Positions 6,463 through 63,375 of a stretch of DNA of 64,000 bases are shown one piece after another. Every line of letters starts with the position of its first letter. The stretch's first letter is position 1. Source of the stretch: an uncultured bacterium. GTDB lineage: Bacteria; Vulcanimicrobiota; Xenobia; Xenobiales; Xenobiaceae. The stretch lies in contig CAKTUZ010000017.1 of the NCBI GenBank assembly GCA_934621605.1, positions 1,572 through 65,571 on the forward strand, in the 5' to 3' direction. A program made the translations under genes and the position numbers. The notes beneath the pieces are model-generated. The model saw only the letters and a program-made list of their open reading frames with translations. It did not search any database and was not told the DNA's origin.

Positions 6463-8568
6463 GTGGCAGGAAAAGAAACGCAACTAATGGGAAATATCGA
6501 TACTATGATGAATTTTAAGTTTTCCGCTTTACTACTTAGTGTAGCCGTTGCTTTAGCTCTACCTTCTTTGAGCCATGCCGACGAAGGTATGTTCCCTTTC
6601 AACGCTCCTCCCAAAACCCAATTAGCTCAGAAATATCATTTTAACCTGAGTGATCAATGGCTTAATCAAGCTATGCATGCCGCTGTGCGCTTTAATAACG
6701 GCGGATCCGGAGGTTTTATTTCTCCTGAAGGCTTAGTTATTACCAATCATCATATAGCTGATGAAACTCTTTCCGAACTGAGCACTCCTGAGCGCAATTT
6801 AATTGCTACAGGTTTTTTGGCTCGAACCAGAGCCCAAGAGCTGAAAGCCCCCAACTTAGAGATAAATTGCTTGCAATCTATTACCGATGTTACCGAGCAA
6901 GTAAATGCTTCCATTACCCCTAAGATGAGCGCCGAAGAAGCTGCCTCAGTTCGCAAAGCCAATATTGCCCGAATAGAGCAAGAAGCCAATCGACGCACTA
7001 AACTGCGCTGCGATGTGGTAACGCTCTATCAAGGCGGACAATATTGTCTTTATATCTATAAAAAATACACTGATGTGCGTTTAGTGTGGGCTCCCGAACA
7101 AGACGTAGCTTTCTTCGGCGGCGATGCGGACAATTTCGAGTATCCGCGCACTTGCCTAGATGCTACCATTTTCCGCGTCTATGAAAACGGCCAACCGGTA
7201 AAACCGCAACATTATTTTGCTATCAATCCTCAGGGGGCGACCGAAAACGACTTGGTCTTTGTGATAGGCCATCCTGGTACTACCAATCGTCTGGAAACTT
7301 ACGCTCAGACCGTACACACACGCAACTTCAGTCTGCCTTATCGTTTGGCCAGAGCCAGAGCTATGGAAGCGGCTTATTTACAATTTGCCGAACGTTCTCC
7401 AGAAAATGCCAGGCGCATAAATAACGATATACGCTCTATTGCCAATTCGCGCAAAGCCTATACTGGCATGTATCAAGGGCTGTGTCAAACTTCCATTATG
7501 GAGCGCAAAAAGGCTCAGGAAGACAAGTTACGCAGTTTAGTAAAAGATCAGACTCCCTGGCAAGAGATAGAAGAAGCTTGCCAAAAAGCTTGCTTAATCG
7601 AAGAACCTTACAATCTTTTGGAGCGAGCTGACGCCTACCCCAGTCCCTTATTCTCCATAGCCAGACATATTGTCCGTTTGGCTCGCGAAAAAGATAACGC
7701 GAAGCTCCACTTGCCAGAATATAATTCGACTAAGCTCGATTCGCTCAGACAGAAACTTTTTTCACCTGCCCCTATTTACGCCGATGTAGAAAAAGCTCGT
7801 CTCAACGCCAGCTTCTCCTTCTTGGCCGAGCGTTTGGGAGCTGATAACGCTCAAGTACAAACTGTATTGCAAGGTCAAAGTCCGGCCGATCGAGCTGGCT
7901 ACTTAGTAGACAATTGCCGTTTGGCTGATGTACAAGAGAGGCAACGTTTAGCCAAGCTCAGTTTGTCGGAATTAGAAAAATCAGACGACGCCATGATCCA
8001 GCTGGCTCTAGCTGTAGATAATGAAGCTCGCCAAGTGCGCCAAGCTTATGAGAAAATTTTTAAAGCTCCCTCAGTTCAAGCTTATGCCAAAATAGCTTCC
8101 GAGCGTTTTAATCTTGACCAAGGAGCCACTCCTCCGGATGCCACCTTTACTTTACGACTCTCTTACGGTATGGTGAAGGGTTATCAAGATGGTAGCCAAG
8201 CAGTAAATTGGCGTACTACTTTGGGCGATCTATACGAACGCGCCGATTCACATCAGAATACGATTCCTTTCCAAGTGCCTCAATCTTGGCGCACTCATCA
8301 GGCAGAAGTCGATCCCAATACCAATATGGTTTTTGTGGCTACTTCTGATACTATCGGCGGCAACTCCGGCAGTCCGGTGCTCAATACCCAAGGCGAATTG
8401 ATCGGTCTTAATTTTGATCGCAACCAATTTGGTATGGTGCGCAACTTTGTCTATGACGAAGTAAAAGCCCGCCATATTTCGGTAGCTTCTCCGGCTATTT
8501 TAGAAGCTCTGCGTCACGTTTACCATGCTGACGAATTACTTAAAGAGCTTATTCCTAACTCCAAATAA
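6463..8568 (+). CDS. S46 family dipeptidyl-peptidase (DPP7/DPP11-like), secreted
   Basis: Signal peptide (FSALLLSVAVALALPSLSHA). Chymotrypsin-fold catalytic triad regions ITNHHI ... GGNSGSPVLNTQGELIGLNFDRNQFGM are typical of S46. The start is possibly at the internal MMNFKF (~6508). Confidence 0.75.
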   Translation: MAGKETQLMGNIDTMMNFKFSALLLSVAVALALPSLSHADEGMFPFNAPPKTQLAQKYHFNLSDQWLNQAMHAAVRFNNGGSGGFISPEGLVITNHHIADETLSELSTPERNLIATGFLARTRAQELKAPNLEINCLQSITDVTEQVNASITPKMSAEEAASVRKANIARIEQEANRRTKLRCDVVTLYQGGQYCLYIYKKYTDVRLVWAPEQDVAFFGGDADNFEYPRTCLDATIFRVYENGQPVKPQHYFAINPQGATENDLVFVIGHPGTTNRLETYAQTVHTRNFSLPYRLARARAMEAAYLQFAERSPENARRINNDIRSIANSRKAYTGMYQGLCQTSIMERKKAQEDKLRSLVKDQTPWQEIEEACQKACLIEEPYNLLERADAYPSPLFSIARHIVRLAREKDNAKLHLPEYNSTKLDSLRQKLFSPAPIYADVEKARLNASFSFLAERLGADNAQVQTVLQGQSPADRAGYLVDNCRLADVQERQRLAKLSLSELEKSDDAMIQLALAVDNEARQVRQAYEKIFKAPSVQAYAKIASERFNLDQGATPPDATFTLRLSYGMVKGYQDGSQAVNWRTTLGDLYERADSHQNTIPFQVPQSWRTHQAEVDPNTNMVFVATSDTIGGNSGSPVLNTQGELIGLNFDRNQFGMVRNFVYDEVKARHISVASPAILEALRHVYHADELLKELIPNSK

Positions 8569-54104: not shown

Positions 54105-55328
54105 TTGGCTAGTAATTACGAACTTTTCACCTCAGAATCTGTAACTGAGGGACATCCTGACAAGGTGGCCGATCAGATTTCTGATGCTATTTTGGACGCT
54201 TTTTTAACTGAGGATCCTCAGTCCCGCGTAGCCTGCGAGACTTTCCTCCACACCGGCTGCGCTCATATTGCCGGCCAGATCACTTCTTCCGCCTACATCG
54301 ATATTGCTGACATTGTACGTAAAACTTTGGTCGAGATTGGCTATGATTGCCCCGACTACGGTATTGACGGACGCAGCTGCGGTGTGCTCATATCTATCGA
54401 CGGTCAGTCTCCCGACATCGCTCAGGGCGTAGACTGCGCTTTGGAAGTACGTGACGAGAAAGAAAAAGCTGAGGAAGAAGACGCTGTAGGCGCCGGCGAC
54501 CAAGGCATGATGTTTGGCTATGCTTGCGATGAAACTCCCGAGCTTATGCCCTTGCCCATTCAGCTCTCTCACGCTTTGGCTATCCAGTTGGCTAAAGTTC
54601 GCAAAACCAACGTTTTGAGTTATCTCCGTCCCGACGGAAAGACTCAGGTCACTATCCGCTACGAAAACGGAAAGCCCATAGCTATCGACACTATCGTTAT
54701 TTCCACTCAACACGATCCCGATGTGTCCTTAGAGCAAATTCGCAAAGATATGATTGAGCACGTGATTCTGCCTATCGTACCCGCTCAGTTTATCAAAAAA
54801 GAAGGCGATAAGATCGTCTCTCCTCGCATTTTAGTCAATCCTACCGGTCGTTTCGTTATCGGCGGCCCTCAGGGTGACACCGGCTTGACCGGACGTAAAA
54901 TTATCGTCGATACTTACGGCGGCATGGCTGCTCACGGTGGCGGCGCTTTCTCCGGCAAGGATCCGACAAAGGTTGACCGTTCTGCCTGCTACGCTGCTCG
55001 TTATGTAGCGAAGAATATCGTAGCTGCTGGTTTGGCTTCCAGATGTGAAGTTGCTCTCGCTTACGCTATCGGCGTAGCTGAACCTGTAAGCGTATCTGTC
55101 GATACTTTCGGCACCGAGACTATTCCTGTAGCCGACATTATAGCTTTAGTACGTAAAAACTTCGATCTGCGTCCCGGCGCTATTATTCGTAAGCTTAAAT
55201 TGCGTCGTCCCATTTACAAAGCCTTGGCTGCTTATGGTCACTTTGGCCGTACTCTTCCCGGTGCCACCTGGGAAAAAACCGACAAAGCCGAGACTTTACG
55301 CGAACAGGCTGCCAAACTCAAAAAGTAG
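54105..55328 (+). CDS. metK: S-adenosylmethionine synthetase
   Basis: [42 protein letters not shown]. The start is assigned to the in-frame TTG at 54105 preceded by AAGGAG, which gives the canonical N-terminus [12 protein letters not shown]. Confidence 0.85.
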
Positions 55329-55359
55329 TTTTTGCAACTAATTCAGCCTAAAATAAATA

Positions 55360-55402
55360 AAGCCCCTCCTCCGTATTATAAAATAGAGGAAGGGCTTTTT
55401 TT
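55360..55402. terminator. bidirectional rho-independent terminator between convergent metK and TPR gene
   Basis: Stem GCCCCTCCTC / GAGGAAGGGC with an A-run upstream and T7 downstream. Confidence 0.65.
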
Positions 55403-55412
55403 ATAGCACTTT

Positions 55413-56252
55413 TTATGGCATGAACATATTTTTAACGAAATCAAAAAAGCCGCCATTAGCTTGTTTTTTTAAATGTTTAACTTCAGAAGCCAAATTTTCC
55501 ATAAAGGGCAAAGGACAATTTAAGCGAGCAGCTTTTTCTACCGAGCGTTCGGCTATATCAAAATTTTTATTGGCTGCCGCCGACATGGCATGTAAATACC
55601 ATAATCTAGCCCTGTTTACTCCTCGCTGTACAGCAATTTGTAGAAAGTCAAAAGCTTTGTTATAACGTTGCAGCATATAGAACATTTCTCCCATACGCTG
55701 ACACATATTTAAATCGCTACCAAAGCGACCTTTCCAATCTTCAGTAGCTTTTGTCGCCTCATTAAGCAAGTTTGCTTTGTAGAGAACAAAAATACGTTCC
55801 ATTAAATAAATAGGATCTTCATCATTCTGTAGCAACTTTTCGGGACTGTAAACTTTTTCTATTGCTTCCTTAAGTTTATTCTGATCATTTTTTTTCAAAT
55901 TAAAGGACAAAGCATAAAGCCAAGTGCTTTCTGCCTTAGCCAAATCGGGAAAAAGCTTCATGTAACTTTCACCGTAACGCACTGCTTTATCAGCATTGCC
56001 TTGAACTAAATTACAATGAATAAAACCGCGCAAACCTAATATTTTACTTTTTTCTTCTTCGTTCTGAGCGGCTTTATTATAAAAAGAGAGAGCTTGTTCA
56101 AAATTGCCTTCCAAAAGCATAAGATCAGCCGTAACCAAATCAGAGCCGCTCTCGGTAGCTTCTTCAGGACTGGTATAAGTGTAATGGTTATATAGTTTGC
56201 TTCCCTGCCAAGTGTCGGAATTGTTCTTTTTTTGAGTCGATTCAGCTACCAT
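55413..56252 (-). CDS. tetratricopeptide-repeat protein
   Basis: Repeated 34-residue TPR-like units (AxxxYxxA...AxxxxxxA patterns). Confidence 0.6.
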   Translation of the reverse strand: MVAESTQKKNNSDTWQGSKLYNHYTYTSPEEATESGSDLVTADLMLLEGNFEQALSFYNKAAQNEEEKSKILGLRGFIHCNLVQGNADKAVRYGESYMKLFPDLAKAESTWLYALSFNLKKNDQNKLKEAIEKVYSPEKLLQNDEDPIYLMERIFVLYKANLLNEATKATEDWKGRFGSDLNMCQRMGEMFYMLQRYNKAFDFLQIAVQRGVNRARLWYLHAMSAAANKNFDIAERSVEKAARLNCPLPFMENLASEVKHLKKQANGGFFDFVKNMFMP

Positions 56253-56424
56253 ATGATAAAATCCAAAACAAAAAAACTCGCATAATTCTAGGAATTGCGC
56301 TATTCCAGAGTTTCTTATTTATAAAAAAAAGCCTGCCTGGCAATTGGCCGAAACTGCAGCTTACACAAAAATCGACAACGGCGGGCCTGCGCAGCGTTCA
56401 TTAGTGTAGCGTAGCAAAACGCTT

Positions 56425-59400
56425 CTATTCTCGGGACTTTAATTCTGCAATTCCAAGCCCGAAGTATTTATCAAAAAAGGCTTTCAGCTTCTCGATTATA
56501 CCTTGCTTCTTCTTGTCTCTGCCGCTACCGCCGAAGCGTGAAATTGGGGGCATGAGCTTGCCGATTCCTGTTCCTATTGTTTTTAATTCTCCGTCAAGGA
56601 AGGCGCGGTCAATAAACTTTCTGGTTTCTTCCGGATTCAACTTTTCGTTCCTGATAATTTCCGTCAAATCATTTTCTTCTTGTTCCAGAACAAAACGCCG
56701 CCAATCCGTATTAACCTGCGTGTCAGTATTGACACGACCAATAAATGCTTCGATAAGCGCTTTTTTGCTGCGCAGCTGCGTACTTGCCTCAACTGTCTTG
56801 CGAATAGAAGTGAGGATTTCTTGATCTTCGCAGTTGCTGTCATGATATTTTTCAACCAACATCAATATATAGTCAATATTGATTTCCACTTGCTTGATCA
56901 GCTCGATTTCAAATTCAATATCATCAGTTATATCTTCTTTTTCGGCATCTTTTTTTCTGCGGTACTTGTCGTAGAGATCAAGGTAAGCACTTTGATAATC
57001 CTGCAAGTCTCTGGCCGAGATATTATCCTTTTCTGCAAACTGGTCAAAAGATGAAAGAATGTTTCTTATGCTGAGGATCGAGCCAAACAGTTTGATAAAG
57101 TCCTTCTCCGCCTGCTCTCCGACAATCTGAGCACCAAAAGGAAACTCTGTTTCCAGCTTTTCAAGCAAATCAATATAGCCAGGATGATATTTTCCTCGAC
57201 TGTCCTCGTAGCCGTTCCAATAATCGTTGAAGCTCTTGAGCAGCACAATACCGCTCGCGTTCTTATCGCCAAAGATGGCGATTGCATCATCTGTGGCTTG
57301 CTGCAAATCACGGAAGCAAACTATATTGCCATAGGTCTTTACAGAGTTCAAAATACGGTTAGTCCGGGAATAAGCTTGAATCAGCCCATGCATCTTAAGT
57401 TTTTTGTCCACCCATAGAGTGTTCAGTGTGGTAGCATCGAAGCCCGTTAAGAACATATTCACAACAATTAGCAAATCAACTTCCCGATTCTTTACTCGCA
57501 TGGACAAGTCCTTATAATAGTTCTGGAACTTGTCAGAGGAGGTATCAAAGTTAGTTCTGAACGCAGCGTTGTATTTTTTTATGGCATTTTCAAGGAACCC
57601 GCGAGAATTCCGATCCAGGGCATCGGTATCAAAGCCCTCCTCTTGCAGAACATCTTCGGGATCATCCTCATTTGCAGAGTAGCTGAAAATAGTGGCAATT
57701 GTAAACTGACGGCGGCTTTCGGAAATCTGTCTCTGAAACTCATTGTAATACTTTATTGCCATGGGAATGGAACTGACAGCGAATATGGCGTTAAAACCAG
57801 CCATCCGTTTGCCTTTCAAAGAGTAAAAACTATTGCGCTTGGTTTTCTGATCGAAATGCTCCAGCGTGTATTTAACGATTTCCTGAATACGCTCCGGCGC
57901 CTCCATCGCCCGTTCACTGTCGATTGCAGCCACGCTCTTATCCTTGATGTTCTCTTTTTCCTTAACCGTATTCACATAGTCGACGCGGAACGGAAGCACA
58001 TTGCCGTCATTAATAGCATCCACGATGGTGTAATTGTGCAGCTGATCGCCAAAGGTCTGCGGCGTGGTCAGAAGTTCCGTGCGTTTGCCTTTTCCTGCAT
58101 TGGCGGCAAAAATGGGGGTGCCCGTAAAGCCGAACAGGTGATAATTTTTAAAGGACTTTACAATCTTAGCGTGCATATCGCCGAATTGGCTGCGATGGCA
58201 CTCGTCAAAGATGATCACGCAATGCTTGCCAAATACTTCGTGTCCCTTGTTCTTCGTTATAAAGTTGTTCAGCTTCTGGATGGTGGTGATAATGATTTTA
58301 TATTGATGGAACCCGCCTTTCTCATTCCTGTCCTCAAGCTGTCTCTGCAAAACTGTTGTAGAGGTATTGCTGTTGGCAGAGCCTTTTTCAAAGCGGTCAT
58401 ATTCCTTCATAGTTTGATAGTCAAGGTCTTTGCGATCAACAACGAACAAAACCTTATCTATATAAGGAAGTGCGGACGCAAGCTGTGCGGTCTTGAAGGA
58501 AGTTAGGGTTTTGCCGCTTCCTGTGGTATGCCAGATATAACCTCCGGCCTCAGTCGTTCCCATCTTTTTATAGTTGGTCGAAATTTCAATACGGTTTAAG
58601 ATACGCTCAGTCGCGGCAATCTGATAGGGGCGCATGACCATCAGAATTTCTTCTGTTGTGAAAACACAATATTTGAACAGCACATTCAGAATGGTATGCT
58701 TGGCAAAGAAGGTTTTCGTAAAATCGATCAGGTCGGCAATGACCTTATTGTTGCCGTCCGCCCAGAAGGAAGTAAACTCAAAACTATTGCTGGTTTTCTT
58801 CGATTTCCGTTTTGCAGATTCGCCCATCTCTTTGATGTGGCTGTTTCTGGTGGTGTTGGAATAATATTTGGTGTGTGTTCCGTTGGAAACAATGAAAATC
58901 TGCACATACTCATACAAGCCGCTAGCAGCCCAGAAGCTGTCTCTCTGGTAGCGTTTGATCTGATTAAAGGCTTCCCGTATGGCAACACCACGGCGTTTAA
59001 GTTCCACATGGACAAGAGGCAGACCGTTGACCAAAATAGTCACATCATAGCGTGTATCGTGATCGCCTTCGATTTCCTCATACTGGTTGATAACCTGCAA
59101 ACTGTTATTGTGAATATTCTTTTTATCTATAAGCCGAATATTCTTGGAAGTTCCGTTATCCCTGCGAAGTGTCTTTACATGGTCGATCTGGATGGTGCGA
59201 CTTTTCTCAACGATGCCCTCATTGGCATTAGCAAGATTTTCCACAAAGAACCGCTTCCACTCGCCGTCGGTAAAAGTATAATCGTTCAAACGCTCCAGCT
59301 GCTGTCTAAGGTTGACAATCAGACTTTCTTTATCATGGATGGAAAGATACGCATATCCTTGAGCAGTCAGCAGACGGATAAATTCCTTTTCCAAAGCCGC

Positions 59401-59496
59401 TTCGCTCTGAAAGCTGTCAGAACGTGAGCTTTCCGGCGTATATTCAGCAGCTACGGTGCTGTCATTACTTTCAATAATAATATTGTAATTACTCAC
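56425..59496 (-). CDS. hsdR: type I restriction endonuclease subunit HsdR (type IC/EcoR124-like size)
   Basis: Helicase motif I HTTGSGKTLTSF and motif II IIFDECHRSQ (DECH). N-terminal nuclease region VNGLPLVHVELKRRG. 1023 aa. Confidence 0.85.
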   Translation of the reverse strand: MSNYNIIIESNDSTVAAEYTPESSRSDSFQSEAALEKEFIRLLTAQGYAYLSIHDKESLIVNLRQQLERLNDYTFTDGEWKRFFVENLANANEGIVEKSRTIQIDHVKTLRRDNGTSKNIRLIDKKNIHNNSLQVINQYEEIEGDHDTRYDVTILVNGLPLVHVELKRRGVAIREAFNQIKRYQRDSFWAASGLYEYVQIFIVSNGTHTKYYSNTTRNSHIKEMGESAKRKSKKTSNSFEFTSFWADGNNKVIADLIDFTKTFFAKHTILNVLFKYCVFTTEEILMVMRPYQIAATERILNRIEISTNYKKMGTTEAGGYIWHTTGSGKTLTSFKTAQLASALPYIDKVLFVVDRKDLDYQTMKEYDRFEKGSANSNTSTTVLQRQLEDRNEKGGFHQYKIIITTIQKLNNFITKNKGHEVFGKHCVIIFDECHRSQFGDMHAKIVKSFKNYHLFGFTGTPIFAANAGKGKRTELLTTPQTFGDQLHNYTIVDAINDGNVLPFRVDYVNTVKEKENIKDKSVAAIDSERAMEAPERIQEIVKYTLEHFDQKTKRNSFYSLKGKRMAGFNAIFAVSSIPMAIKYYNEFQRQISESRRQFTIATIFSYSANEDDPEDVLQEEGFDTDALDRNSRGFLENAIKKYNAAFRTNFDTSSDKFQNYYKDLSMRVKNREVDLLIVVNMFLTGFDATTLNTLWVDKKLKMHGLIQAYSRTNRILNSVKTYGNIVCFRDLQQATDDAIAIFGDKNASGIVLLKSFNDYWNGYEDSRGKYHPGYIDLLEKLETEFPFGAQIVGEQAEKDFIKLFGSILSIRNILSSFDQFAEKDNISARDLQDYQSAYLDLYDKYRRKKDAEKEDITDDIEFEIELIKQVEINIDYILMLVEKYHDSNCEDQEILTSIRKTVEASTQLRSKKALIEAFIGRVNTDTQVNTDWRRFVLEQEENDLTEIIRNEKLNPEETRKFIDRAFLDGELKTIGTGIGKLMPPISRFGGSGRDKKKQGIIEKLKAFFDKYFGLGIAELKSRE

Positions 59497-59515
59497 GCGG
59501 CATCTTCCCCATTTT

Positions 59516-60163
59516 TTATTTTTGCTGGAAAGTCAGCAATTTATCCCGATAAAACTCATACTGTTTCTTTCTCGCTGTAAGCTCTGCTGTAAGCTCTGCT
59601 GTAAGCTCCGTGAAATTGTCCAGGATGCGGACAATTTCACTCTGCACTGGCAAAGGAGGAACGGGAATTCGGATTGCTTTTATTGCAGGTACACTCGAAT
59701 GAACAACTTTGCTTTTGACCTTCCCCGCACTTTTTTGCCGTCTTGCTTCTTCGGTTGCAAGCGCATAACTCAAAAACTTTGGATTCTCATTGTGTTTTAG
59801 AACAACAATATCCCCACCTGCCAAACAATCGTCATCGCCTACATATGCGCATGATTTTGCAATATCTTCAACGCTCTCTCCAGTGATGGCAAACAGAATG
59901 TCTCCATGGCTGAAATATTTGGGAGACTGCACATACTCAAGCCGTGTATGAGATACACATGAATCGAACCAAATGCCGTATGTTGTGTAGATTTCTCCGT
60001 AACGAACACAAGGAATTCCATCCTTGGTAACTTGGTCACGCTTTATTCCAGAGCCACGGAAAACATCGGTTGCTATTTCGCCAAGTGTTTTATACTCCAC
60101 CCCATCTGGGCAGTATTGCTGAATCAGTTCGTCCAGCTTGCTCTGTTTTCTCTCATTACTCAT
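59516..60163 (-). CDS. hsdS: half-size type I specificity subunit HsdS (single TRD) with C-terminal TAEL repeats
   Basis: A single TRD followed by the conserved helix ...[32 protein letters not shown]. The ATGA start overlaps the rhuM stop. Confidence 0.75.
59576..59611. repeat. 12-bp tandem repeat (GTAAGCTCTGCT x ~3) encoding (TAEL)n in hsdS
   Basis: Read directly: gtaagctctgct gtaagctctgct gtaagctccgtg. Confidence 0.85.
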
Positions 60164-61287
60164 TCGTCCTCACCGCCTTCCTCTATTTGAAGCGGATTGT
60201 GAACGCACGAGTGCACAATCTCAGTTTCAATCGATTCCGGGAACCTCGGAGCTGCTTCCTCCAACAGTATCCTGTCGAAGTCGCTTTGATACAGCCGATC
60301 CTGCACAATGCGATATTTTTCAAACTCGCTCAAGGCATGGCTTTTTGCCAGCTCTGCGGAGATTTTTCCGGCATCCTGCAACACATCTCTGTCCCAAACC
60401 TTCAAAAAACCATTCAGCCGTTCTTCCCAATCTGCCATTGTCATCGGAATGTGCCGCTCTGCCTGCGCTTCTGCCAGATCCAGATATGCCGAAACAATGC
60501 GTCCCAACTGGGAAAGCTCCTTTTCGGTCAAATAGTTTTTCGCTACCACAACATCATAGGCATGAATTTTACTTTTGGGCGAATCGTCCTATGTGGTAAG
60601 CCCCATGTGCTCCTTTTCCGCATTCGCCCGGTTATAGATAACCTCGGCTGCTGTTTGTCCATGAACACTATAATGCAATTTGTTTTGCACCGCTGCAAAA
60701 AAGCGTTTTGTAGCCGCTGCAGAAGGGTCGTAGTCCAAAGCTGTGGCATAAATATCGGTAATTTTCTGATAAAATTTTCTTTCTGAAAGACGAATCTCAC
60801 GGATTTTTTCCAGCTGCTTTTCAAAATATTCTTTTGTCAGCACCGTTCCGCTGTTTTTCAGACGGTCATCGTCCATAACCCAACCTTGAATGGTGTAATC
60901 TTTTACAATCTGGTTGGCCCATTTTCTAAACTGCACCGCTCGCTCGTTATTCACCTTGAAGCCAACTGAAATAATCGTTTGCAGATTATAATGATTTACT
61001 TCACGGGCAACCTGACGGGAACCTTCAGTTTGAACTATCCGATATTTTCGGATAGTTGCCGATTGCTCCAATTCTGAATCGGAATATATTTTTTTAATAT
61101 GGTAATTGATGGTTCGTACATCCACATCATACAAAGAAGCCATCATTTTTTGCGTCAGCCAGATATTTTCATCTTCGTAACGCATCTCTATGCTCTTTTC
61201 GTCTGCGCCTGTGGAGGCAACAAATGTCAGATACTCCGCAGCGGAGGAACGAACGATGCTGATTTCACGCTTGTCCTTCTTCATCAT
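60160..61287 (-). pseudogene. rhuM: rhuM-family gene interrupted by an in-frame TAG (60586-60588)
   Basis: The two ORFs 60589-61287 and 60160-60549 are in the same frame. The translation reads ...EHMGLTT-TAG-DDSPKSKIHAYDVVVAKNYLTEKEL. ATGA overlaps with both neighbours. Confidence 0.6.
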
Positions 61288-62853
61288 CCCACCTCAATTT
61301 CCGCAATAATTTTCGCAATTTCACTGCGCAGAATTTGTTGGCGGGCTACAATTTGTTCAATCTTGGCATTAAGCTCTGCAATGTCAATTTTTTCTCTGGT
61401 GTCCTTGGCTTCCACGTAGGTAGAGACGGAAAGATTATAATTGTTCTCCTCGATTTCTTCATAGTTTGCCAAATGGGAGAAGTGTGCTTCCTCAGTTCGC
61501 TTTGCAAAGGTATCGACGATTCTTTCTATATTCGCCCGGGTCAGCTTGTTATTATTCGTTACCTTAACGCACTCGGCGGAAGCATCAATAAACAGAGTCT
61601 TGTTATCGACTTTACTTTTCTTTAGCACCATAATGCAAGTAGCAATGGAAGTCCCGAAAAATAGGTTACTTGGCAGCTGAATGATACAGTCTACAAAATT
61701 GTTGTCAATCAGATACTTTCTTATTTTTTGTTCTGCACCGCCACGGTACATAATGCCGGGGAAGCAGACGATCGCCGCCGTGCCGTCTGTGGCCAGCCAC
61801 GAAAGGGAGTGCATGACAAAGGCAAGATCCGCTTTAGATTTCGGTGCAAGAACGCCAGCCGGAGAAAAACGGGGATCATTAATCAGTAAAGGATTATCAT
61901 CACCAGCCCACTTAATAGAATAAGGAGGATTGGAAACGATCAGTTCAAAGGGCTCATCATCCCAATGCTGCGGTGCGGTCAGTGTGTCCTCGCAAGCAAT
62001 GTTAAAATTATCAAACTCAATATCATGCAAGAACATATTGATACGACACAGGTTGTAAGTAGTAACATTTATTTCCTGTCCATAAAAGCCATTTCTGACC
62101 GCCTCTTTGCCGAGAACCTTTTCCGCTTTTAGAAGCAGAGAGCCGGATCCACAGGCAGGATCATAGACTTTATTGATTTCAGTTTTTCCCACCGTGCCAA
62201 GTCTGATCAGCAGCTCGGAAACGTCCGCAGGGGTAAAAAACTCGCCGCCGGATTTTCCTGCGCCGGATGCGTACATGGTCATTAGATATTCATAAGCATC
62301 GCCGAAGGCATCAATATCATGATCCTTCACATCGCCAAGGTTCATATTGGCTACGCCGTGCAAGAGCTTGACAAGGCGCTCATTTCTCTTTTCAACGGTA
62401 GAGCCGAGCTTGTTACTATTAACATCAAAATCATTGAAGAGTCCGGCAAAGTTGCTTTCGGAAGACGAGCCTCTTGCAGAGCTTTCGATATTGTTAAATA
62501 CACGCTCCAAGGTCTCGTTCAGATTTTCGTCATTATCAGATTGCTTGTTTCACATTACAGAAAAGCTCCGAAGGAAGAATAAAACAGCCTTTTTCTGTTA
62601 CCAAGTCCTCACGATTTTCTTCTCTTACCTCAGCATCGGATATTTTTGCATAGTCAAAGTCACAATTGCCACATTCACATTCATTAGCATTGATATAGTT
62701 AGTCAAATTTTCGGAGATATAGCGGTAAAACATAGTTCCAAGGACATAGTGCTTAAAATCCCAGCCGTCCACGGCGCCCCGAAGCTCATCAGCAATAGCC
62801 CATATCGCACGGTGAAGCTCATCACGCTCTTGCTCTTTCTTCGTATCAACCAT
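61284..62853 (-). pseudogene. hsdM: type I HsdM methyltransferase gene with +1 frameshift near 62535-62545 (HsdM_N ORF 62536-62853 and catalytic ORF 61284-62510)
   Basis: N-part ...[14 protein letters not shown]-stop. The adjacent frame continues [24 protein letters not shown]...NPPYSIKW. The two parts together equal a normal ~520-aa HsdM. Confidence 0.55.
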
Positions 62854-63071
62854 AACCCTCTATCTCCTTTTTTTGTTCCATATAAACTATCAATCACAAG
62901 ATAAACAGTCTCTTATGCCATACTGTCACAATATAGTTTTTCCTTCTTATTCTCAAAATAGTGCTTCACGCTAAGATAAAAATCAATTTTGGGCCTGCGC
63001 AACATTGTTGCACTTGCTGCGCCAACATACAGGCATAAACGAAAAAATATATCTTTTTTGCCTTTAGGGGC

Positions 63072-63100
63072 TTGACCAAAATAGAGGCTGGTGCTAGAAT
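63072..63100 (+). promoter_or_regulatory. sigma70-type promoter for the tRNA-Asn array
   Basis: TTGACC (63072-63077), a 17-nt spacer, and TAGAAT (63095-63100), located ~30 nt upstream of the first tRNA. Confidence 0.6.
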
Positions 63101-63132
63101 TCGCATGTTCCTTGAGAGAGGAGCATGGAGAT

Positions 63133-63207
63133 TCCGACATAGCTCAGCGGTAGAGCAATCGGCTGTTAACCGATCGGTCGTAGGTTCAAATCCTGCTGTC
63201 GGAGCCA
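63133..63207 (+). tRNA. tRNA-Asn (anticodon GTT), copy 1, CCA encoded
   Basis: Cloverleaf folded by hand: acceptor TCCGACA/TGTCGGA, D-arm GCTC-AGCGGTA-GAGC, anticodon stem ATCGG/CCGAT with loop CTGTTAA, T-arm GTAGG-TTCAAAT-CCTGC, discriminator G + CCA. Confidence 0.9.
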
Positions 63208-63216
63208 ACTTTATAT

Positions 63217-63291
63217 TCCGACATAGCTCAGCGGTAGAGCAATCGGCTGTTAACCGATCGGTCGTAGGTTCAAATCCTGCTGTCGGAGCCA
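63217..63291 (+). tRNA. tRNA-Asn (GTT), copy 2, identical
   Basis: Exact repeat of copy 1 with an 84-bp period. Confidence 0.9.
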
Positions 63292-63300
63292 ACTTTATAT

Positions 63301-63375
63301 TCCGACATAGCTCAGCGGTAGAGCAATCGGCTGTTAACCGATCGGTCGTAGGTTCAAATCCTGCTGTCGGAGCCA
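63301..63375 (+). tRNA. tRNA-Asn (GTT), copy 3, identical
   Basis: Exact repeat of copy 1 with an 84-bp period. Confidence 0.9.

Follow-up and report, generated by a model that had tools for sequence, protein, structure and literature searches.

A putative half-size type IC specificity gene with a TAEL repeat of constant length in the available assemblies of a Vulcanimicrobiota lineage

Results

Gene order and features of the locus

The window analyzed here, a stretch of 64 kb of DNA from an uncultured member of the Vulcanimicrobiota, carries a four-gene operon-like block on its minus strand (56425-62853), with the order hsdM, rhuM, hsdS and hsdR. The hsdM gene (61284..62853) is split into two open reading frames of 105 aa and 408 aa, both of which match TIGR00497, and the rhuM-family gene (60160..61287, Pfam Virulence_RhuM) is split by an in-frame TAG at 60589-60591. 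The half-size specificity subunit HsdS is encoded by an open reading frame of 215 aa (59516..60163, stop codon included), and the reading frame together with its Pfam domains defines an intact hsdR gene (56425..59496) encoding 1023 aa from a GTG start. Neighboring genes are closely joined: the start of rhuM overlaps the stop of hsdM and the start of hsdS overlaps the stop of rhuM, both at ATGA junctions, and hsdR starts 19 nt past the hsdS stop. Scanning 55300-63200 for promoters and terminators yielded counts equal to the shuffle expectation and no usable signal, and by its GC profile the restriction-modification locus does not stand out in composition. Directly upstream of the locus (63133-63375, plus strand) are three tRNA-Asn(GTT) genes, near-identical and arranged in tandem with a period of 84 bp.

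The locus encodes a type IC system

Pfam domains found in HsdR are HSDR_N, SWI2_SNF2/ResIII, a T1R_D3-like domain and EcoR124_C (PF12008, E=6e-65), and the protein aligns with HsdR of EcoR124I (2w00/7bst) over residues 6-834 with 873 bits (E=2.5e-261). An intact allele of HsdM (P0126) matches the EcoR124 HsdM (7bst_D) with 636 bits. Since HsdR and HsdM are close homologues of the EcoR124I subunits, the locus is, as judged by homology, a type IC (EcoR124-family) restriction-modification system. A conserved region in which repeats of four amino acids (such as TAEL or LEAT) stand in tandem ahead of RKKQYxYYRD is a feature of HsdS proteins of this type (PMC10030836; PMC3874165). Residues 167-214 of the window HsdS align without gaps over 48 residues to the central conserved region of EcoR124 HsdS (7bst_A, residues 151-198; 54 bits), with TAELTAEL and RKKQYxYYRD shared between both proteins. 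The similarity of the target recognition domain (TRD) to the solved EcoR124 TRDs is weak. An earlier note on this DNA, made from the letters alone, had described a half-size, single-TRD HsdS of type IC, and the matches of all three subunits bear this description out.

HsdS has one TRD and one helix

Pfam detects a single Methylase_S domain in HsdS (residues 19-195, E=1.2e-12). An AlphaFold2 model built with 35 homologues (mean pLDDT 89) shows a short N-terminal helix, a mixed alpha/beta TRD and one continuous helix of 41 residues (171-211). From the Pfam span and the mixed alpha/beta part of the model, the single TRD covers about residues 19-166 (59666..60109, minus strand). The conserved-region helix (59531..59653, minus strand), delimited by the model and the EcoR124 alignment, is predicted to form a dimerization coiled-coil arm. 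Foldseek matches of the model include the HsdS structures 1yf2, 7bst and 5ybb and the single-TRD protein Esub1 (8vsr). The gene ends three codons past LLTF, directly followed by hsdR. A second set of hsdS conserved-region motifs (KQYxxY, TAEL, LPAEI) was found nowhere else in the six frames of the 64-kb window, and neither a poly-G or tetranucleotide tract nor a second TRD, both of which are present in relatives, occurs in 59516-60163. As far as sequence can tell, hsdS is half-size, complete and the sole specificity gene of the locus within the window.

The repeat in the helix has two full TAEL units

Tandem Repeats Finder (TRF) reports a repeat with a period of 12, 2.9 copies, 100% matches and no indels at 59574-59608 (minus strand, residues 186-197). 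The tract is 35 bp long with breaks at 59573 and 59609, and its coding-strand units are GAGCTTACAGCA, GAGCTTACAGCA and GAGCTTACAGCG. It is in frame and encodes ELTA three times (E186-A197), which is the 12-residue peptide named in the title of the earlier note; the repeat that had been placed at 59576-59611 is real, its coordinates being a few bases off. The protein had also been described as ending in the repeat, but 18 further residues follow it. The count of (TAEL)3 given before is too high, since in the TAEL register there are two full TAEL (188-195) with TEL before and TA after them. The DNA repeat looks longer because these flanking residues match the unit by coincidence. From LDxF to RKKQY the linker measures 13 aa in the window HsdS and in 7bst_A. 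Since 7bst_A is a two-TAEL chain and the alignment to it is gapless, the helix is by this comparison in the EcoR124I state (two TAEL) and not in the three-repeat state of EcoR124II. The repeat is the spacer-setting tetra-amino-acid element of EcoR124I/II, as had been recognized earlier (PMC3874165).

Given the peptide and the codon usage of the window, the chance of identical codons across the units is about 1e-3. The identity of the units at the DNA level exceeds what the peptide requires and is meaningful. The codons used in the repeat, GAG, CTT, ACA and GCA, are minority codons in the long open reading frames of the window (where GAA makes up 72%, ACT 48% and GCT 50%), which is consistent with a foreign origin of the hsdS conserved region. 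A weaker tandem repeat of 12 bp x 2.0 (AATTTCCGCAAT, 91% matches) is present at the 3' end of hsdM (61296-61319).

hsdM is frameshifted in the window and rhuM is interrupted in all copies

Positions 1-95 and 112-515 of TIGR00497 fall on the 105-aa and the 408-aa reading frame of hsdM, respectively. The break is caused by one additional A (A2 to A3) at 62548-62550, which reads GTGAAACAAGC in the window and GTGAACAAGC in other assemblies. For comparison, five further assemblies of the lineage from different samples were available (L081-L085: Logan SRR31242514, three ENA assemblies and GCA_902478265.1), and all five contain an intact hsdM of 522 aa. The frameshift that had been noted before is present in this assembly and absent from the five others; the 8.66 kb compared with L081 contain no other indel. 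Being one surplus A in a very short run and missing from five near-identical assemblies, the frameshift could be a sequencing or assembly error, in which case the system would be fully active in the window's strain too. However, two contigs, one re-assembled by Logan from ERR7738587 (L090) and the other a scaffold of the ENA assembly ERZ28613844 (L091), have the same truncated products, and a run of three bases is an atypical site for indel errors. The frameshift is reproducible, although the two contigs may share one sample, and we regard an error as unlikely. If the frameshift is real, no M2S2 core would be made, and methylation and restriction would both be off in the window's strain. In the comparison of L081 with window positions 54500-63200, 13 of the 19 substitutions are a G in L081 and an A or T in the window; these G-rich substitutions may be a sequencing-chemistry artefact of the L081 contig.

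In rhuM, positions 1-154 and 167-249 of Virulence_RhuM are distributed over the two reading frames. The TAG separating them takes the place of a Trp codon (HMGLTTW) in the homologues L080, L004 and L073, corresponding to a change from TGG to TAG, and this nonsense codon is common to all assemblies of the lineage.

The half-size gene and its relatives with several TRDs

The nearest relatives of the TRD are found in an uncultured bin (L001, 99% aa identity) and in Alitiscatomonas aceti (L002, 97% aa identity), with 92-93% identity at the nucleotide level. In both, the matching domain is the first one (TRD1) of a longer hsdS with two or three TRDs. The TRD and first helix of the window align to TRD1 and the first conserved region of L002, L009 and L073, and, starting at 59593, the window then matches the last conserved region of the same three loci and their hsdR, with about 0.5-1.2 kb skipped. 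Compared with L002, the window from 59593 matches L002 from 7741, and the approximately 1.1 kb located between the two conserved regions of L002 is absent. At its 3' end the window gene reads TFQQK and a stop, with the hsdR start about 20 nt further on; this tail is similar to the one at the gene end of L002 (TFKKQ, stop) and unlike the L002 sequence continuing after the first conserved region. The half-size hsdS looks like the product of an exchange between two homologous conserved regions, which may have run in either direction.

Such an exchange could also have left behind a non-functional remnant. Recombination between the conserved regions would then have removed the distal TRD or TRDs from a decaying locus, and the longer genes of the two nearest relatives as well as the joining of a helix of the first-conserved-region type to a tail of the gene-end type just before hsdR fit this explanation. 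Decay is visible at the locus, as rhuM has a nonsense codon in every copy and hsdM is frameshifted here, and hsdS could be a leftover rather than a working gene. On the other hand, the hsdS reading frame is intact, its helix is complete and it has a proper stop; hsdM and hsdR are intact in five assemblies, and many half-size homologues have short natural tails. The same architecture is active in EcoR124I delta-50, EcoDXXI::Tn5 and NgoAV (PMC3874165). We consider it quite unlikely that hsdS is a remnant.

The nucleotide identity of the TRD (window 59528-60143) to L001 and L002 compares with only about 80% in the flanking hsdM and hsdR genes. Clusters of proteins at 90% identity place the host near Candidatus Bruticola (Vulcanimicrobiota, class Xenobia). 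Because the TRD is so much more similar than its flanks and resides in a Vulcanimicrobiota host, this suggests a recent cross-phylum exchange of the TRD between Lachnospiraceae (Alitiscatomonas aceti) and that host.

Several relatives carry simple sequence repeats next to their conserved regions. A (GACA)n tract encoding DRQTDRQT after the distal-type conserved region, followed by a further TRD, is present in L001 (about 7030-7200) and L002 (about 7048-7700), and further relatives are of the (GACA)n type (L005, L045, L048, L049, L053, L071 and L079; P0048, P0078, P0086 and P0101). By their arrangement, the (GACA)n relatives match the 'extended' three-TRD hsdS genes switched by simple sequence repeats (SSR) (PMC7383803). 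Tails of (AACG)n and (GA)n are also present among hsdS relatives. Poly-G follows directly after the TAEL helix in L014 (about 6620-6650), L002 (about 6610-6640) and L073 (about 2700) and in P0007, P0026, P0047, P0120 and others. These poly-G relatives look as if they switch, in the manner of NgoAV, between a truncated and a full-length form. Tails of GGG(G) end approximately 15 of the 47 'half-size' products from the database.

Repeat number is constant in the lineage and differs between related genes

The earlier note had proposed that slippage or unequal crossing-over at the repeat could phase-vary the recognition sequence and that repeat number should be compared among strains. Compared base by base, the hsdS genes of all five further assemblies match the window at 648/648 nt and have its repeat number, and the exact HsdS protein was found on 8 contigs. 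A scan of metagenomes with lineage-specific flanks, which allowed 1-6 units, yielded a single contig, which is that of L082 and carries 3 units. Exact look-up of protein variants with 1, 2, 4 or 5 units gave no match, in a collection that also lacks the actual protein with 3 units. These assemblies are 99.8-100% identical, so that very little evolutionary time is sampled, and they are consensus sequences, to which minority repeat lengths in a population are invisible. All available assemblies of the lineage have a repeat of one and the same length, and phase variation is unsupported. An invariant repeat number among strains, which the earlier note had named as a refutation of its proposal, is what these consensus assemblies show.

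Between related genes the number of units does differ, and this part of the earlier proposal stands. Among 75 central conserved regions from 80 genome loci, linkers from LDxF to RKKQY of 5, 9, 13, 14 and 17 aa occurred 1, 1, 44, 1 and 28 times, respectively. Half-size products of the same TRD family (68-89% TRD identity, n=47) have linkers of 9 aa (8 products), 13 aa (11) or 17 aa (28). ELTA-coding units are identical in 57.5% of the within-gene pairs compared with 16.5% of the between-gene pairs, and gene-specific synonymous or replacement variants have been copied through all units, such as GTA in L027, ACC in L053 and L077 and CTA in L010 and L068. Homogenization of the units within genes is, at the sequence level, a signature of repeated gain, loss and conversion over evolutionary time, from which we infer that copy number changes by slippage or unequal exchange on that time scale. 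Quantized linkers and homogenized units are not evidence of rapid phase variation in this lineage.

The possibility that the repeat is an active contingency locus has to be weighed against these data. Frequent, reversible slippage would then generate subpopulations with different spacers and thus a phase-variable specificity. At the DNA level the three units match perfectly, units are homogenized within genes and their number differs between related genes, and changes of this kind, with an effect on specificity, are documented by the variants of EcoR124I/II and of the NgoAV LEAT repeat (PMC3874165; PMC6789123). Yet the copy number is constant in the lineage as described above, three copies of a 12-bp unit are a short tract, and a unit divisible by three gives no ON/OFF switching. 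In addition, the switch-like relatives use poly-G or (GACA)n tracts, which are absent here. A contingency locus is therefore very unlikely in our view. Equally improbable appears a switch of specificity at low frequency, in which minority alleles with 2 or 4 units, invisible in a consensus, would combine with on/off mutation of hsdM to give methylome heterogeneity, with a TRD derived from Lachnospiraceae. Were it true, one slippage event would lengthen both coiled-coil arms of a homodimeric S subunit at once. An invertible or shufflon-type hsdS system was ruled out, since there is no second hsdS copy in the 64-kb window.

Discussion

Taken together, the locus is probably best explained as a type IC operon with a fixed half-size hsdS, the product of which would act as a homodimer on a palindromic target, with a ruler of EcoR124I length that is constant in the available assemblies of the lineage. 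By analogy with known systems, the helices of two HsdS copies would pair in the antiparallel coiled coil which, in a full-length S subunit, is formed inside a single chain, and the paired subunits would assemble into an M2S2 methyltransferase or an R2M2S2 nuclease. The target would then be an interrupted palindrome consisting of two inverted copies of one half-site. A homodimer and a symmetric target are expected because EcoR124I delta-50, EcoDXXI::Tn5 and NgoAV set precedents for both. The ELTA/TAEL repeat in the helix would serve as the ruler for the distance between the two TRDs. Since the helix is as long as that of EcoR124I (two TAEL), the predicted geometry is that of EcoR124I and of the delta-50 homodimer (GAA N7 TTC), in which 7 nt separate the methylated adenines. 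Each 12-bp unit added or removed over evolutionary time, when identical units slip or exchange unequally, would change the spacer by 1 bp.

In the Vulcanimicrobiota, a gut phylum that has received little study, the locus provides a clear-cut natural case of a type IC S subunit fixed at half size. For methylome annotation, the prediction is that strains with an intact hsdM show an interrupted palindrome with EcoR124I-like spacing and that the window's strain lacks the motif. The related genes add evidence, at the level of sequence, for a TAEL ruler that turns over by slippage in many gut bacteria, its lengths being quantized and its units evolving in concert. Beyond annotation, the importance of the locus is little.

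Comparison with known systems

EcoR124I has two TAEL and recognizes GAA N6 RTCG; EcoR124II has three TAEL, and the spacers of the two enzymes are N6 and N7, respectively (PMC3874165). The window HsdS shares with them the helix sequence (IVRILDx..., aligned without gaps) and the 12-bp repeat coding for a spacer-setting element of four residues, and the HsdR and HsdM proteins are close homologues. In contrast to EcoR124 HsdS, which has two TRDs per chain, the window protein has one, and the window locus has rhuM between hsdM and hsdS and an hsdR located 19 nt past hsdS. The helix is of the same length as in EcoR124I, yet the flanking residues in the window extend the DNA repeat to 2.9 units.

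Truncated S subunits are known to be active as homodimers: EcoR124I HsdS(delta-50) recognizes GAA N7 TTC and the truncated S of EcoDXXI::Tn5 recognizes TCA N8 TGA (PMC3874165). Like these two, the window HsdS has only the N-terminal TRD and the central conserved-region helix. Both are laboratory truncations which keep fragments of the second TRD, whereas the window gene ends cleanly, and all available assemblies of the lineage share this form of it.

NgoAV of Neisseria gonorrhoeae is, like the window gene, a natural half-size type IC S subunit with tetra-amino-acid repeats; its truncated form recognizes the palindrome GCA N8 TGC (PMC3874165). Strains with one or two LEAT methylate GAC N6 TGC or GAC N7 TGC, respectively (PMC6789123). 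In NgoAV a poly-G tract, downstream of which lies a second TRD, controls the truncation, and the number of LEAT varies from 0-3 among strains and changes the spacer (PMC6789123; PMC3874165). The window gene differs in having no poly-G and no second TRD, and no variation was seen in the assemblies of the lineage.

SSR-switched or 'extended' three-TRD hsdS genes (Atack et al., 2020, PMC7383803) are the form of the window's closest TRD relatives (L001, L002, L005, L045 and others). Those relatives carry (GACA)n or poly-G beside their conserved-region helices; the window gene is without such tracts, its only repeat having a unit divisible by three. Direct precedents are known for every element of the locus: for TAEL repeats, for half-size S subunits acting as homodimers and for repeat numbers that vary naturally.
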